A stretch of DNA of 64,000 nucleotides from Escherichia coli (GTDB lineage Bacteria; Pseudomonadota; Gammaproteobacteria; Enterobacterales; Enterobacteriaceae): the NCBI RefSeq assembly GCF_044324875.1, contig NZ_CP172185.1, one strand, 5' to 3'. The notes beneath the pieces were generated by a model that saw nothing but the letters and a program-made list of their open reading frames with translations, ran no database searches and was not told the DNA's origin. The position numbers and the translations under genes were made by a program. Positions 36,221-52,011 of this stretch are shown piece by piece (position 1 is the stretch's first letter; each line of letters begins with the position of its first letter).

Positions 36221-37075
36221 TTAAATAGAGGCTGCGGGTTGCAGACTGACTTTAATGTCAGCTGGTGTCGCGTAATAAGGCGCGGAGGTAATAAAAAGGC
36301 GAATGCCGCAGTCGAGGTAATTTTTGAGTGTTGTCAGATTAATTCCACCGGTCAGAGCCAGCGTGCAGTGAGGAGCCAGCGACGGTGCTATTTGCGCAAT
36401 TTCAGTTGCCTGTTGCGGACTAAATTTGTCGAGCTGAAGTACGTCTGGTTGCGCGCGTAACGCGGCGATTGCCTCTTTCGGCGTGTCGGCTTCAACAACT
36501 ATTTTCTTCTCGGGTGCGTGGCGACGTAACTGATTGATTGCGCCTGACCAGTCCTGATTGTCATGAAGAAAATGACGGTGGTTGGCAAACAATAATATGG
36601 TTTCCGCACATCCGGCACGATGAATCAGTCCTCCGGCAGCCAGAATTGCCTGCGAGGCCAGTAAGCGGGTGCCCGGAATCGCTTTTCGGGTGCAGGCGAT
36701 ATTGCCATCAGGGTAACGTTCACGAAGTAACGCCAGCATTTGAGCGAGATAATCAGAAACACCGCAACTCCACTCCAGCACATTCTGGACTGCCTTCCAT
36801 CCCTGATGAAGTGCTGCGGCATTACCCTGCGCACGGATTAGCCGCTGACGCGCGTTCGCTTGTGAACCGTCGCTGACCGCGTCATCAATAGTTAATCCCA
36901 GCGTAGTTAACATCTTACACGCGACAGAAATTCCGCTGACGCAGCCGCCCTGACGGTGAAAAAACTCTATATAGCCATGCTGGTGTCCAATATTTAATGC
37001 TCGCGTGGTCAGGTCACCGCCCTGGATATCTTCCAGAAGTAACGCATCGATTTGTGCCTGAGAAAGGAAAATCAT
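36221..37075 (-). CDS. ModD-like protein (quinolinate phosphoribosyltransferase fold), 284 aa
   Basis: Family assignment from sequence resemblance recalled from memory; not searched. Confidence 0.55.
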   Translation of the reverse strand: MIFLSQAQIDALLLEDIQGGDLTTRALNIGHQHGYIEFFHRQGGCVSGISVACKMLTTLGLTIDDAVSDGSQANARQRLIRAQGNAAALHQGWKAVQNVLEWSCGVSDYLAQMLALLRERYPDGNIACTRKAIPGTRLLASQAILAAGGLIHRAGCAETILLFANHRHFLHDNQDWSGAINQLRRHAPEKKIVVEADTPKEAIAALRAQPDVLQLDKFSPQQATEIAQIAPSLAPHCTLALTGGINLTTLKNYLDCGIRLFITSAPYYATPADIKVSLQPAASI

Positions 37076-37884
37076 CGCAGTGCCTCTTGCGGTACGCTAT
37101 CCCACCAGATGAGCGCCCAGTCGCGGCTGGCAGGGGCGAGGGCACGAGCATCTTGTTGTTGATACCAGCGATATAACCGCTCACGCTCATCGTCGTTAAG
37201 TGCGCCCAGACTCCAGCTGACGTTCTGCTCAAAACGTTCCCAGGTGCTGTTATCCTGTTGGCAATTTTGTCCACGGATAAAATCAACGTGAGCATAAATT
37301 CCCATCTGATACAGGACGTTGAGCGCAAAGATATAGTTGGGTAATTCGATCACTTCCCGACCAGCCGCCCGCTGAATGGCTGGAGAGACGAACGAGGTGC
37401 TGACCAGATGAGTCGTATAGACGCGAAGCCGTGCCTGATTATTCAGTTTGCTCATTGCCTGGCGCATATCAGCCACCAGAGTGGAGCGGGAAGCCACGGC
37501 AATATCGCAGCGTGGCAGGTCACTCCAGTCCTCTTCCCAGGCGCGCTGGATCCAGTGGACATTGTCTGCCTTTAGCGCGGCGGCGCGACGGGCGGCAACC
37601 TTCAGCATCCCCTGACTGTAATCAACGCCATAAATCGTCGTGAGTTTGTCAGCCAGCGCCAGCGATACGGTACCCGGTCCGCAGCCCATATCGAATAAGG
37701 TCTGCGCGCCTTGCAGATCAATTTTAGCGGTCAGTTGTTGCAGGTAGCTGTCCGTAGGCGAGGCGCAATTTTCCGCCATTTTTTCCGCCCGTTGATCCCA
37801 GTGATCCGGCGTTTTTTCTGTGCGGTGGGCCAGTTTGAGTTGCTGCAGGTAAAGGTCCGCAAAATCAATATCATCAATGAGCAT
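37072..37884 (-). CDS. class I SAM-dependent methyltransferase (270 aa)
   Basis: Motif I-like DMGCGPGT; overlaps the ModD-like gene start by 4 bp. Confidence 0.65.
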   Translation of the reverse strand: MLIDDIDFADLYLQQLKLAHRTEKTPDHWDQRAEKMAENCASPTDSYLQQLTAKIDLQGAQTLFDMGCGPGTVSLALADKLTTIYGVDYSQGMLKVAARRAAALKADNVHWIQRAWEEDWSDLPRCDIAVASRSTLVADMRQAMSKLNNQARLRVYTTHLVSTSFVSPAIQRAAGREVIELPNYIFALNVLYQMGIYAHVDFIRGQNCQQDNSTWERFEQNVSWSLGALNDDERERLYRWYQQQDARALAPASRDWALIWWDSVPQEALR

Positions 37885-37893
37885 GATTGTTCC

Positions 37894-38652
37894 TTAGTGG
37901 CTAATTGCAGAGAGGTGATGATGAATCTGGTCGGCAGAAACCCGATACAGGGCAGCCAGTTTGTTCGTTGTTAACTGTTCGGTCGGTAAGCCTTGTGTTA
38001 CTCGTCCATCTGGCTCTACCTGGATAATGCTGTCGGCAATGGCGTTGGCATGGAGCGGATGATGAGTCGACATTAGCATTGTCATGCCGTTATTTTTGAG
38101 CTGCGCCAGCGTGTCCAGTAGTTGGATCTGATGACCGAAATCGAGGCTGGAGGCAGGCTCATCCAGTAATAACAAGCGCGGTTGCTGGACGAGTGCACGG
38201 GCGATTAAAGCCAGCTGACGTTCACCGCCGCTAAGCGTATTCCAGCGTCGTGTCGCCAGATGCAAAATGCCCAGCTTTTCCAGTTGCTCCGTTGCTTTCA
38301 GGCGTTCTTGCTTACCGGGAACGGAAAAAGCGCCTATGGTGGGGGCCAGGCCCATCAACACCATATCCAGCACACTAAAAGCAAAAACGCCGTCGTGCGC
38401 CTGCGGCACCCAGGCAATAGCCTGCGCGCGTTGGCGATGGCTGAGTGTCTGCACAGGGAGGCTATCCAGTAAGATCTCGCCTTTTCATAACGGTATAACG
38501 CCAAGAATGGAGCGCATGAGTGTGGTTTTGCCGCAACCATTGGCTCCTAACAGACAACAAATTGTTCCTTGCGACAGGGTGAAGGACACGTCGCGTAGCA
38601 CCGGATGGCGGGAGTAACCCAGAGACGCATGACGGACGGCAAGCAAAGTCAC
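37894..38652 (-). pseudogene. FepC/FecE-type ABC transporter ATPase interrupted by an in-frame TGA (stop at 38485..38487)
   Basis: Walker A GANGCGKTT upstream of the stop; ABC signature LSGGERQ, Walker B LLLLDEP and H-loop downstream, same frame. Confidence 0.8.
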
Positions 38653-39629
38653 TGGCGACCTCCGCGTAACAACAAAAACAGGAAAAACGGTGCACCAACA
38701 AAAGCGGTCAGAATGCCAAGTGGGATTTCTGTTGTTCCAATGCTGCGTGCCAGCGTATCGGTAAGCAGGAGCAGAATCGCGCCAGTACACATTGCCATGG
38801 GCAACAGCTGCTGATGGTTATGACCGGTCAACAAGCGAGCAATGTGCGGAACGACCAGGCCGACCCAACCAATTATGCCCGCTATTGCTACCGTGCTGGC
38901 GGTGATTAGTGTGGCGCAGACAATTAATCCAAAGCGCAGACGTGTCACGTTCAGTCCCAGCGAACGGGCTTCGTCGTCGGAAAGCGTGAGTAAATTCATG
39001 CGCCAGCGGAGAAAAAACAGGGGCAAGGAGCCTATGAGAATGATCGGTGCAGCATAGCAGAGATCGCGTAAGGTCACGGTGGACAGCCCCCCCAGCAACC
39101 AGAAGGTAATTGACGGTAACTGGGTGTAAGGATCGGCCAGCGTTTTTATTAGCGATATCCCCGCTCCGCACAACGTTCCTAACGCAATGCCTACCAGCAC
39201 CAGGGTTAAGATCGGATCGTGGCGGGTCACCCGACGCGTAATCAACCAGACGCCCGCGACCACCATCAGCCCGCCGCAAAATGCGTACAGCTGGATGTAA
39301 ACAATGGATAATCCCCACAGGATTGCCGCGCAGGCACCAAGTCCGGCACCGGCGGAGACGCCTAAAATATCCGGTGACACTAAGGGATTACGGAACATTC
39401 CCTGATAGGTGGTTCCGGCCCCTGCCAGCGCCGCGCCCAGAAACAGCGCAGCAAGAATACGCGGCACGCGGATTTGCCAGAAGACAATTTGTTCCTGCAC
39501 AGGAACATTTTCTTGACGAAGAATGAGCGCCAGCAGTTGCTGTATATCGAGATGATAAGCCCCACTTACGGCGGCAAAAGTGATACTGATAGCTGCCAGC
39601 AGCAAAATACATCCGTTTACGGTTCTCAT
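38649..39629 (-). CDS. FecCD-family ABC permease (326 aa)
   Basis: Polytopic membrane protein, typical FecCD/BtuC-like sequence; stop overlaps the ATPase start (GTGA). Confidence 0.85.
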   Translation of the reverse strand: MRTVNGCILLLAAISITFAAVSGAYHLDIQQLLALILRQENVPVQEQIVFWQIRVPRILAALFLGAALAGAGTTYQGMFRNPLVSPDILGVSAGAGLGACAAILWGLSIVYIQLYAFCGGLMVVAGVWLITRRVTRHDPILTLVLVGIALGTLCGAGISLIKTLADPYTQLPSITFWLLGGLSTVTLRDLCYAAPIILIGSLPLFFLRWRMNLLTLSDDEARSLGLNVTRLRFGLIVCATLITASTVAIAGIIGWVGLVVPHIARLLTGHNHQQLLPMAMCTGAILLLLTDTLARSIGTTEIPLGILTAFVGAPFFLFLLLRGGRQ

Positions 39630-40651
39630 TAGCTCGTCACCAATTTTTGATAGTCGGCGTCACTTAATGGGCAATGCCAGAACAGTTGGGCGTAATGCTG
39701 CATGTCACTTTTAAACTGGCGATTGATGGCGGGATCCAGCCAGGCGTGAAGTCTGCGTAATCCCAGAAGACGGTTGATTCCCGGCGGGGCATCCAGCCAG
39801 CCAAAGGGCAGGCCACTTAAAAATAAGATGCGTTGTTCCGCAACCGCTTTCACGCCCTGCCAGAGAGGATCACGACGAATAAAATCTGCAGTAACGGCCT
39901 CCTGAACCAGAATAATATCCGGCTGCCAGCGCAGGAGATTTTCCATGGAAACCTGTGTCAGACCGTGGCGATCGGCTATTTGCGCGACGTTATGCAAACC
40001 TAATAATTCCGCCGCCTCGGTATGCAACGAACCCTGTAAGCCCGTTTCCAGCCCTCGAGGACCGCGCGCAGCATAAAAGCTGAGGTTAGCGGCGGGTGAG
40101 GTGGCGAATGCCTGAGCTTCACCAACGAAGCGGCTGGCGAGATTGGCTTGTTCTGCGGCGCGGTGCTCTTCGCCTAACGTTTTGCCAAGCGTTGTTAACT
40201 GTTCTGCTGATTGTTCCAGTTTCCCGTTAAGCAATAACCAGGGTATTTGTGTCTGTTCGCTAACCTGCCGTGCCTGGGAGATCCAGGTTTCATCCGTATT
40301 GCCGCAATCAACGACCAAATCGGGATGTAACGCCATAAGCCCTTCCAGCGAGAGTGTGCTGGCGCGCCCGGCGAGTCGTCCCAGCCTGGGTAACTGGCGA
40401 ATGTGCTCTGGCAATGGAATTAATGCCTGACGGGCAAAATCAAAAGAGGAAAAACCGACCATTTTTTCTGGCGCGACAGCCAGCAATAGCAAATCGGCGG
40501 GCGCACCTGCGCTGACGATGCGTGTAATGTTTTGGGCTTCGGGAAGCGTCAGTGAGGCCCAGAATTTGACTGATTGTGCAAAAGAAGGCAGATGATGCAG
40601 GAACAACGTCGACGCAAGAATCTGTGTAAACCTCCGTCTGGTTAGTGACAT
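39629..40651 (-). CDS. periplasmic substrate-binding protein (cluster A-2 siderophore/cobalamin-type) with Tat signal (340 aa)
   Basis: N-terminal RRRFTQ twin-arginine motif; first gene of the operon. Confidence 0.75.
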   Translation of the reverse strand: MSLTRRRFTQILASTLFLHHLPSFAQSVKFWASLTLPEAQNITRIVSAGAPADLLLLAVAPEKMVGFSSFDFARQALIPLPEHIRQLPRLGRLAGRASTLSLEGLMALHPDLVVDCGNTDETWISQARQVSEQTQIPWLLLNGKLEQSAEQLTTLGKTLGEEHRAAEQANLASRFVGEAQAFATSPAANLSFYAARGPRGLETGLQGSLHTEAAELLGLHNVAQIADRHGLTQVSMENLLRWQPDIILVQEAVTADFIRRDPLWQGVKAVAEQRILFLSGLPFGWLDAPPGINRLLGLRRLHAWLDPAINRQFKSDMQHYAQLFWHCPLSDADYQKLVTS

Positions 40652-40924
40652 AAGTTATATCCTGATAATTAAAACCGCTATATATTTACATATATATCGA
40701 AAAAAATCATGTTTGATGTCAAAATTTGTCTAAAGAGACAGAATGATTTGCTTGTTGCTTAAATAACACTTTGTTCCACAAGAAAATTGTCAGGGAGAAT
40801 GGCGGAGTGGCAAAAAATATAAATAGAGGTGTAATGATTAACAAATTGATAAAATAAAATTAAAATCTTCTCTGATAAAAGAAAATAAAGGCATAGACCG
40901 TAGAATGGGGGGCATTTCGTGGCG

Positions 40925-40967
40925 AAAAAAGAGCAATGCCAATTTTATGCACATAATGGCATTGCTC
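40925..40967 (-). terminator. terminator-like hairpin downstream of treA
   Basis: 11-bp stem gagcaatgcca / tggcattgctc with long loop, plus-strand A6 upstream. Confidence 0.45.
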
Positions 40968-40981
40968 GATATACAGCAAAG

Positions 40982-42679
40982 TTAAGGCGTAGGTTCCGCC
41001 TCTTTTTGTTTTACCGGCTGTGTTGTTGATTCACTGAGTGGACGCGTCGCCGGAACATTGTCACACGGTTGCTCTTTCGGGCAGAGCAAATCCAGCATTT
41101 TCAGCGTCACGCCATTGGTCCAGCCAAAGCCATCCTGTAATGGATATTCGCCACCGCCGCCCCCTGTTCCGGTGGTGCTGACATCATATTTCTCGACCAG
41201 CTTCTTCTCCCGGTCATAAGTGTGCTGAACATTGGTCAGGAAGTGCCAGCTAATGTCCATCGCCACCTCGTTCTGCCCGTAGTTTTGCAACCCTTCTGTC
41301 GCCACCCATTGCAGGGGAGCCCAGCCATTTGGCGCATCCCATTGCTGTCCACTTTTCACCGACGTGGTGTTCAGGCCGCCTGGTTGCAGCAGATGTGTTT
41401 TCGTCGCCGTCGCCATTTTGTTGGCGCGATCTTTCGCTGCCGCATTGACGTACAGCGGGAACAGGGCGGCAGCGGTTAACTGATTGCGCACTTTATGACT
41501 TTTCAGGTCGTAATCGGCATACCAGCCTTGTTGATCGTTCCACAGGTATTTTTCGATCCCTTTTTGACGGGCATTCGCCAGCGTTTCGTACTGGTTTGCC
41601 ATCGCGTTATCTCCGGAAGCTTTGCTGGCGCGGGCGAGGATTTTTTCCATTTTAAACATCAGGCTGTTCAGATCGACCGGTACGATGCTGGTGGTGCGTA
41701 AGGTATTTAACTGCTGCGGATTGTCCATCCAGCGCGAGCTGAAATCCCAGCCAGACGCAGCGGCAGAGCGCAGGTCGCGGTAAATTTCAGTGGCAGGTCG
41801 ATTCGGATTGCTTTTGGCGGTGGCAATATCTTCCACCCATGACTCTGGTCGTGGCGTATCGCGATCGTCCCAGTAGCGGTTGAGAAGGGTACCATCCTGA
41901 AGTTTTACAACGCGTTTTTCCTGTTGTCCGGCTTGCAGGTTTTCAACACCGTCCATCCAGTAAGCATATTCTTTTTGCATTTGCGGCAGGTATTGCTTCA
42001 ACGCGGCATCGCCTTCATGCTGCGCCAGTAACTCTACCATCAGGGCAAAGAAGGGCGGCTGCGAGCGACTTAAATAGTAACTGCGGTTGCCGTTGGGAAT
42101 ATGACCGTAAGTGTCTATTTCATGAGCAAAATTGGCCACCATATCCGCGACTTTATCCCAGTGACCGCTTTCGGCAAGCCCCAGCATGGTGAAGTAACTG
42201 TCCCAGTAATACACTTCGCGAAAACGTCCTCCCGGCACGACATAGGGTTCCGGTAACGGCAACAGAGAATCCCATTTCTCGGTACTTTCGGTAGAACGGG
42301 TTAACACCGGCCAAAGTCCGTCTATATGTTCGCGTAGTGATTGCCCCTCTGGCGGAACATATTTCTCGCCCTCTTTCGGCAGGGTGAAATTGACGTTAAC
42401 GAAATGGCGCAGATCAAATCCGCTCTGGTTTTGCTGCATCCGATAATCAGCAAGGATCATCAGCGGATCGCTGTTCGGCACGGCATCGGCAAAGGTTTTT
42501 TGGTCCGGAAAAAGTTTGGCGTTTTGCACATCATTAAACAGCGGCCCTAATAAAATATCAGGCGGCTGTGGCGTTACCGGTGTTTCTTCTGCCTGCACCG
42601 ATAGCGCAGCGAAACACAAAAAGATGCAGGTTGGAATTAACGCCATTTTTAGCGGGCGAGAAGCTGCGGGGGATTTCAT
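40982..42679 (-). CDS. treA: periplasmic trehalase TreA (565 aa)
   Basis: Recognisable full-length sequence. Confidence 0.95.
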
Positions 42680-42997
42680 CAATCATTCTCCTTTGGCGAA
42701 ACCGAATAAAACGGTATTCAAGTATCAGAAAACCTTAGTTCAGGATCGCACTAGCTGCATGATCGAAATCTCATTCTGCGAACGGTCAGGCATTTTAGAA
42801 AAGGGAATTAAAGGGATAAATAACGTCGAAATAGAGTGAACAAATAACGTCTGTTTGTTAGCCAGCCAGCGGCGTTGGGTTCGCGATTAGCGAAGAAAAA
42901 TCATCACAAATTGGTGAAAAATATAACAGGTAGTTAAAAACATCCGTGCAGAGTAAATAGCCGGATGACATCAGAACGATGCCATCCTAACTGTGGT

Positions 42998-51254: not shown

Positions 51255-52011
51255 ACCACTCCTATATAGTACCCAGGCTATGGGTCTATGGATTTTGTCA
51301 TTTTGTTTAAGTCAATGAATAATATCCTCTTATCATCATGATATTTGTATGGTGCTATCATGATGAGCTGCTCTGAGAATAATTCTCTATTACCGGGCAA
51401 AATCAGGAACACAGGAATTAATATATATTTAACATCCCCCTTACAAAGGTGAGTTTAGATCGAGTTATTCCCTAAGTTGTCGTTACTTATTCCAATTCGT
51501 TACAATGAATATGACAAAAACATTACAACAAACAGCGGTTAAATAATTTGGTGAATATTTTTGGTAATAATCCTAATTGGTTATGGGATTTTCGCTTGAT
51601 GTATCTGCATAACAAAAACAATATGAGCCATTTTTGCATTACTAATAAGAAAAAGCAAAAAACATCGATATTCATTTTTGATCAATGGATTTTCTGGCAT
51701 ATCGTTATTATCGTGATACTGGTTATCATTTTCATCTTGCCAGGATCGCACGTAATCACGTTATTCGGGGATTTTATCTGCGGGATATTACCCTTCAGGT
51801 AAGTCCTTTTCTCGCCAGCATATTGGAGCGTGATCAATATTGATCAGCTGTAAAAAGGTGTCTGATGTGCAGTGGAACACAAACTTACGTTATCTCATTG
51901 CTAATGAGATATCCCTCATCTGAACACTTATGTCTTTAATTATTCTCGTGGTTCACTATAGGCAATAAGCACAAAAGTGTAGGATGTTATAAGAATGGTT
52001 AGGACTCGGTG

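Follow-up and report, generated by a model that had tools for sequence, protein, structure and literature searches.

Which regulator controls the six-gene uptake operon that lies on the minus strand downstream of treA in this E. coli DNA? The operon carries the label of an iron transporter, and an earlier note on the window (the whole 64-kb stretch of DNA analysed here) had read the 330 bp between treA and the first operon gene as an AT-rich promoter region with Fur-box-like hexamers, which would fit control by Fur or another metalloregulator although the match to the 19-bp Fur consensus is imperfect. The features discussed below are collected in Table 1.

Table 1. Coordinates of treA, the operon promoter elements and the operon genes in the 64-kb window
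Feature	Position	Strand	Remarks
treA gene	40982-42682	-	
treA stop codon TAA	40984-40982	-	
treA intrinsic terminator	40925-40967	-	11-bp stem GAGCAATGCCA/TGGCATTGCTC, 15-nt loop, then TTTTTT
-35 / FNR-like box	40709-40722	-	TTGACATCAAACAT; TTGACA at 40722-40717 is a perfect -35 hexamer
ModE-type operator	40676-40699		plus strand CGCTATATA-TTTACA-TATATATCG; operon orientation CGATATATA-TGTAAA-TATATAGCG
Alternative -10 CGATAT	40699-40694	-	17 bp after TTGACA; first hexamer of the operator
Candidate extended -10	40682-40690	-	TGTAAATAT; TG 40690-40689, hexamer AAATAT 40687-40682; inside operator spacer and right half
Shine-Dalgarno AGGA	40660-40663	-	8 nt before ATG; tcAGGA conserved in Enterobacteriaceae-type orthologs
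Binding-protein ATG	40651	-	
Periplasmic binding protein (Peripla_BP_2, cluster A)	39629-40651	-	first gene; twin-arginine motif TRRRF
FecCD-family permease, MolB type	38649-39629	-	best solved relative H. influenzae HI1471 (MolB)
ABC ATPase, MolC type	37894-38652	-	stop at codon 56 (38487-38485)
Class I SAM-dependent methyltransferase	37072-37884	-	position conserved in nearly all orthologous operons
ModD, quinolinate-phosphoribosyltransferase-like	36221-37075	-	TIGR01334 (modD) 498 bits, cut-off 179; PDB relatives are QPRTases
TonB-dependent outer-membrane receptor	34225-36216	-	last gene

Fur and other regulators at the operon promoter

The interval 40652-40981 is flanked by the treA stop codon and the binding-protein ATG, and this position between the end of treA and the first operon gene agrees with its description as the promoter region of the uptake operon. 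Its AT-richness was also borne out: G+C content is 31.2%, versus 49.1% in the 64-kb window and 52.5% in the coding DNA of the operon. Both quoted strings are present with their hexamers, tgtaatgattaacaaattgataaaat at 40830-40855 and cctgataattaaaacc at 40661-40676. As a regulatory element, the hexamers did not hold up. GATAAT, AATGAT and ATTGAT occur four times, a count at chance level (2.0 ± 1.4 in dinucleotide shuffles, 14% of which reach four), and hexamers of the form NATWAT are fewer than expected (4 versus 6.7). The GATAAT at 40664, the same spot as the earlier note's cctgataatt, is the reverse strand of the spacer adjoining the Shine-Dalgarno AGGA (40663-40660), and the conserved promoter elements all lie more than 100 bp downstream of the string at 40830-40855. 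No conservation was found upstream of the -35-like box in the cross-genus alignment.

Control by Fur would mean that Fe2+-Fur binds the GATAAT-like hexamers and represses an iron-chelate uptake operon. The annotation of the genes as an iron ABC transporter with a TonB-dependent receptor is in line with this reading, as are the hexamers resembling Fur half-sites and a best 19-mer that matches the Fur consensus GATAATGATAATCATTATC at 13 of 19 positions; however, 24% of shuffles reach 13/19. With a matrix made from 14 distinct sites under CFT073 ChIP-seq peaks (Table S5B, PMC7157518), the best score in the interval is 7.7 bits, which 41% of shuffles reach and which lies below every one of the 14 true sites scored leave-one-out (8.4-26.5 bits). 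Among the orthologous promoters there is no positionally conserved Fur-like site: the best matches are mostly 10-13/19, up to 15/19, and scattered. CFT073 itself carries the operon intact, between the old locus tags c1645 (ymgE) and c1654 (treA), yet c1646-c1653 are absent from every table of the Fur ChIP-seq, RNA-seq and proteomics study of that strain, which covers the direct regulon, genes affected by the fur mutation, proteomics and all 349 ChIP peaks in a single, anaerobic growth condition (PMC7157518). Given the background scores, the lack of conservation among orthologs and the missing c1646-c1653 entries, Fur control is not supported. We consider it largely refuted already and put its likelihood close to nil; the first reading was misled by the iron label.

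The best Fur-like site of the 64-kb window lies elsewhere. GAAAATGATAACCAGTATC at 51715-51733 matches 16/19 and scores 19.5 bits with the ChIP-derived matrix, within the range of true sites. It falls in the long stretch between ycgV and ychF, with the start of the ycgV autotransporter gene about 460 bp downstream, and a weaker site is present at 51375-51393. From its sequence, this region may hold an iron-regulated promoter or a small gene.

For Zur, NikR, MntR, CRP and a MerR-type dyad, we scored the interval with consensus strings. Zur, whose scoring the earlier note had proposed, stayed at background (best 13/22, reached by 76% of shuffles), and so did NikR (7/12, reached by 100%), CRP and the MerR-type dyad. 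MntR gave 13/18, but the match falls in the treA terminator hairpin. Covariance models run on 40300-41300 for riboswitches and leader RNAs (Moco, cobalamin and other Rfam families) returned only chance-level hits (E > 1).

A ModE-type palindrome and its promoter setting

ModE had likewise been proposed for scoring, and here the outcome was a perfect palindrome at 40676-40699 (TCGATATATATGTAAATATATAGCGG on the operon strand), which matches all 16 specified bases of the E. coli ModE consensus with a 6-bp spacer. This consensus, as quoted in PMC545781, is CGNTATATA-N6-TATATANCG (equal to ATCGNTATATA-N6-TATATANCGAT), an inverted repeat of the form CGnTATATA-N6-TATATAnCG. On the same scale, the known K-12 operators, read from the genome, reach 14/16 at modA (CGTTATATTGTCGCCTACATAACG) and 15/16 at moaA, both below the score found here. 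The second-best ModE-type site in the 64-kb window matches 12/16. Dinucleotide shuffling of the AT-rich interval, repeated 5000 times, never gave a score above 13/16, and about 3e-7 perfect sites are expected in such AT-rich DNA. The interval thus contains a site above background for a metalloregulator. E. coli encodes ModE, from a gene outside the 64-kb window.

The operator of E. coli modABC is a palindrome of the same type (CGTTATATT-GTCGCC-TACATAACG in K-12 versus CGATATATA-TGTAAA-TATATAGCG here) and likewise sits directly before the ribosome-binding site of a periplasmic binding-protein gene: 19 nt separate it from the ATG of modA, and 24 nt separate the downstream end of the present site from the binding-protein ATG. 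The site here is closer to the consensus, and a conserved FNR-like box lies upstream of it. The match to the consensus and its statistical rarity, together with two findings described below, the conservation of the site at one position in different genera and the homology between the transporter and MolBC, point to a canonical ModE operator, and not a Fur box, as the control site of the uptake-operon promoter, a reading to which we give a probability of about 85%. The idea that a metalloregulator controls the operon is thus very probably right, with ModE in the place of Fur.

We then placed the palindrome within the promoter. The treA terminator, whose RNA folds at -20.1 kcal/mol (z = -2.8 versus shuffles), separates treA transcription from the operon promoter. 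Upstream of the operator, the 14-mer at 40722-40709 matches the FNR consensus TTGAT-N4-ATCAA at 7 of 10 positions, a score that is common by chance in this region. In the 14 Enterobacteriaceae-type orthologs the match is 7-9/10 without exception, and only TTGAY and a CA 9-10 bases further on are conserved upstream of the operator, reading TTGAT-N4-nnCAA. The TTGACA at 40722-40717 could equally be a plain -35 hexamer, and anaerobic activation of the operon promoter through an FNR-like box is a prediction that we rate as less likely than not.

The TG of the candidate extended -10 lies in the operator spacer, which ModE leaves unspecified, and is nevertheless kept in 14/14 Enterobacteriaceae-type orthologs. 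With TGTAAATAT as the -10, the geometry would fit an FNR box centred at -41.5 and a transcription start just after the operator. The alternative -10, CGATAT, would likewise fall within the operator. Whichever -10 is used, bound ModE would lie over the -10/start region and so should repress, as at modA. A sigma-70 scan gave three promoter-like predictions, all in DNA that is unconserved in the cross-genus alignment; the TTGACA box escaped it for want of a canonical -10 at 16-18 bp downstream.

These elements suggest how the promoter might work. When molybdate is sufficient, a molybdate-bound ModE dimer would occupy the palindrome and, because this overlaps the -10/start region, block RNA polymerase as at modABC. 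When molybdenum is scarce, ModE would depart and the operon be expressed, with possible added anaerobic activation through the conserved FNR-like box just upstream. E. coli has other promoters of the molybdenum regulon that are co-regulated by FNR and ModE, namely those of moaABCDE, dmsABC and napF. They resemble the present promoter in combining a ModE site with an FNR-type box, which is here a putative one, predicted from conservation. At these three, however, ModE activates or enhances transcription, whereas the operator studied here overlaps the -10/start region and should repress.

Conservation of the operator and distribution of the operon

An alignment of 19 binding-protein orthologs led to 53 loci, with one genome per species. 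Throughout Enterobacterales the genes come in the same order (binding protein, permease, ATPase, methyltransferase, ModD, receptor); ModD is missing from the operon in Shewanella and a few others. A ModE-type site of 13-16/16, always with a 6-bp spacer, is present in about 45 orthologous loci from 13 genera (Escherichia, Citrobacter, Yokenella, Enterobacter, Klebsiella, Raoultella, Serratia, Pectobacterium, Symbiopectobacterium, Providencia, Proteus, Shewanella and Pluralibacter), whose proteins are only 44-72% identical. In nearly all of these loci it stands 9-34 nt before the binding-protein ATG. Exceptions are Affinibrenneria, Erwinia and Pectobacterium PL152, where the site is 106-252 nt upstream, and the Citrobacter braakii locus, in which no ModE-type site was found. 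When 18 upstream regions were aligned, the palindrome and the TTGAY box were the sole conserved islands in otherwise diverged DNA.

Across the 898 kb of loci retrieved, nearly every site of at least 13/16 stands either ahead of the first operon gene or ahead of the receptor gene. The latter position is used where a gap separates the receptor from ModD or the methyltransferase, as in Providencia, Proteus, Serratia, Pectobacterium and Shewanella fodinae (L030 13548, L034 6077, L037 12740, L038 13574, L045 13704, L047 13572 and others). Beta-proteobacterial operons (Lampropedia, Hydrogenophaga) have the receptor gene first, and there the ModE-type site precedes the receptor; further receptor-upstream palindromes are at L052 5888, L051 6152/6228 and L054 6171. 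The TonB-dependent receptor is thus consistently tied to ModE, through palindromes upstream of it in both split and receptor-first operons.

Could the palindrome serve another regulator, or be just an AT-rich -10 or UP-like feature whose resemblance to a ModE site is coincidental? TATATA repeats are promoter-like, and a palindrome rich in them will by nature overlap any -10-like sequence; the spacer TG and the FNR-like box are promoter elements interleaved with it. Yet promoter function accounts neither for the CG dinucleotides at the outer ends of the palindrome nor for its constant spacing. From Escherichia to Shewanella, and in beta-proteobacteria as well, the palindrome keeps its dyad symmetry, its outer C-G pairs and a strict spacing of 6 bp, and the conserved positions agree with the ModE consensus base by base. 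The operon itself contains modD and MolBC homologs, and no regulator gene travels with it in the loci compared. The second palindrome, moreover, turns up ahead of the receptor gene in just those places that call for a new promoter. We therefore regard both another regulator and a coincidental resemblance as unlikely and retain ModE as the regulator expected at this site.

The block at about 34249-40980 takes the place of the ycgY region of K-12. About 39% of complete E. coli genomes carry the operon, among them O157:H7, UTI89 and CFT073, and about 60% are without it; a search of plasmids returned only chromosome-like E. coli records. Immediately downstream of treA it is found in Escherichia, Citrobacter, Raoultella, Klebsiella-like and Enterobacter-like genomes (34249-40980 in the window; loci L009-L014, L018, L020-L022, L024, L028, L029, L035 and L046). 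Its absence from K-12 may reflect loss rather than recent gain elsewhere. In Providencia, Serratia and Shewanella the operon does not adjoin treA, so it is the operon, and not the insertion junction, with which the site travels.

Reading frames in the region vary among strains. K_EC180 has a frameshift in the receptor gene and a stop codon within treA (L001 3627-5596 and 10383-12080), and in O157:H7 strain 9234 treA is frameshifted (L003 1836-3335). In the window both of these genes are intact.

In the ATPase gene of the window, the stop at codon 56 (38485-38487) falls just past the Walker A motif; the same codon encodes Leu in K_EC180. The gene is otherwise close to an intact 252-aa reference (749 of 759 nt identical, no gaps). 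The transporter may therefore be inactive in the source strain, its operator being intact, and with this nonsense codon the regulation of the operon may no longer matter physiologically there.

Such lesions raise the prospect of a horizontally acquired, AT-rich promoter that is H-NS-silenced or decaying and under no specific metal regulation, in an operon that is becoming a pseudogene cluster. The ATPase nonsense codon of the window, the frameshifted receptor of K_EC180, the absence of the operon from about 60% of complete E. coli genomes and the lack of a reported expression change in CFT073 would all fit. The operator, however, remains at 15-16/16 in all five E. coli and both other Escherichia sequences examined, despite divergence of up to 8% in the intergenic DNA of different E. 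coli genomes and flanks that have diverged in E. albertii. The operon is also intact in CFT073 and UTI89, and silence in a molybdate-containing laboratory medium is what repression by ModE predicts. We judge decay without metal regulation to be very unlikely, and a ModE-controlled promoter remains our preferred reading.

Relation to known uptake systems

Two of the operon proteins are most like those of a molybdate importer. Among solved structures, the permease is closer to HI1471 (MolB; E = 5.9e-65) than to FhuB (2e-50), and is 41% identical to Pasteurellaceae MolB. The best single-domain solved match of the ATPase is HI1470 (MolC), a P-glycoprotein scoring higher overall. The binding protein is more distant: over 230 residues it shares only 25% identity with Pasteurellaceae MolA (E = 2e-11), and its PDB match to HI_1472 is weak and covers 73 residues only. 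In its N-terminus, MSLTRRRFTQ (40630-40651), all 19 aligned orthologs keep R5 and R6, a pattern that suggests Tat-dependent export.

In RefSeq the binding protein and the permease are called 'iron ABC transporter substrate-binding protein' and 'FecCD family permease', and the Pasteurellaceae homolog goes by 'molybdate ABC transporter permease MolB' at NCBI. For the E. coli proteins, the iron label is probably misleading and without specific support. Judged from the operator and these homologies, the operon labelled as an iron transporter is probably a molybdenum-starvation uptake system, and we infer that its cargo is molybdenum (or tungsten) in some form.

With the Fur-repressed operons fhuACDB, fecABCDE, fepA/fepDGC, fit and chu, the operon shares a receptor, a cluster-A binding protein, a FecCD permease, an ATPase and an AT-rich promoter. 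It differs from them in having a ModE-type operator and no Fur box, and in encoding ModD and a methyltransferase, which the iron systems lack. With modABC it shares the logic of a molybdenum-uptake operon, but modABC encodes a type I importer, whereas here a type II FecCD/BtuC-like importer is combined with a TonB-dependent receptor, a methyltransferase and ModD.

The closest solved relatives of the permease and ATPase are MolB and MolC of the H. influenzae molABC-modA-modD cluster (HI1469-HI1475). Like the operon studied here, the Haemophilus cluster has an adjacent modD (PMC3928620). Molybdate and tungstate are the substrates of MolBC-A, a type II importer. The E. coli operon adds a TonB-dependent receptor and a methyltransferase and is without the extra modA-like gene. 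MolBC-A has been described as low-affinity, and the E. coli binding protein shares only 25% identity with MolA. This divergence, together with the added receptor and methyltransferase, suggests that the cargo may be molybdenum other than free molybdate.

In H. influenzae, molB is repressed by molybdate via 'an unknown factor' (PMC4031551), which lends indirect support to a molybdate response of the E. coli promoter. In two Pasteurellaceae molABC loci, whose MolB proteins are 96% and 74% identical to HI1471, a ModE-type palindrome matching 14/16 precedes molA, at a distance of 35 nt (L063 6900-6923) and 22 nt (L066 6922-6945); in each case it is the best ModE-type site of the 17-kb locus. On sequence grounds, this palindrome is a candidate for the site through which that factor acts, with ModE as a candidate for the factor itself.

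In a broader and more tentative reading, which we place somewhat short of even odds, the operon would encode a ModE-controlled, TonB-energised molybdenum/tungsten pathway beside ModABC. The receptor would take up molybdenum, possibly as a chelate ('molybdophore') or a host or dietary complex, followed by MolBC-like import and processing in the cytoplasm by the methyltransferase and ModD. Such a pathway would be present in about 40% of E. coli, many Enterobacterales, Shewanella and some beta-proteobacteria, and the same operator would link it to the repression of Haemophilus molABC.

The operator is of a known kind, and what is newly seen is its attachment to an iron-labelled operon. No description of the operon or of its link to ModE was found in the literature searched; the site may have been predicted before. 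The conserved operator places a widespread accessory operon of E. coli, labelled in RefSeq as iron uptake, in the molybdenum regulon and calls for its re-annotation, and the operon gives ModD a concrete candidate role. If it is indeed a molybdenum/tungsten route, it may be relevant to strains bypassing interventions directed at ModABC, such as tungstate treatment. A TonB-dependent route of this kind, if true, would be relevant to the molybdenum supply that Enterobacteriaceae need when they respire anaerobically in the inflamed gut.
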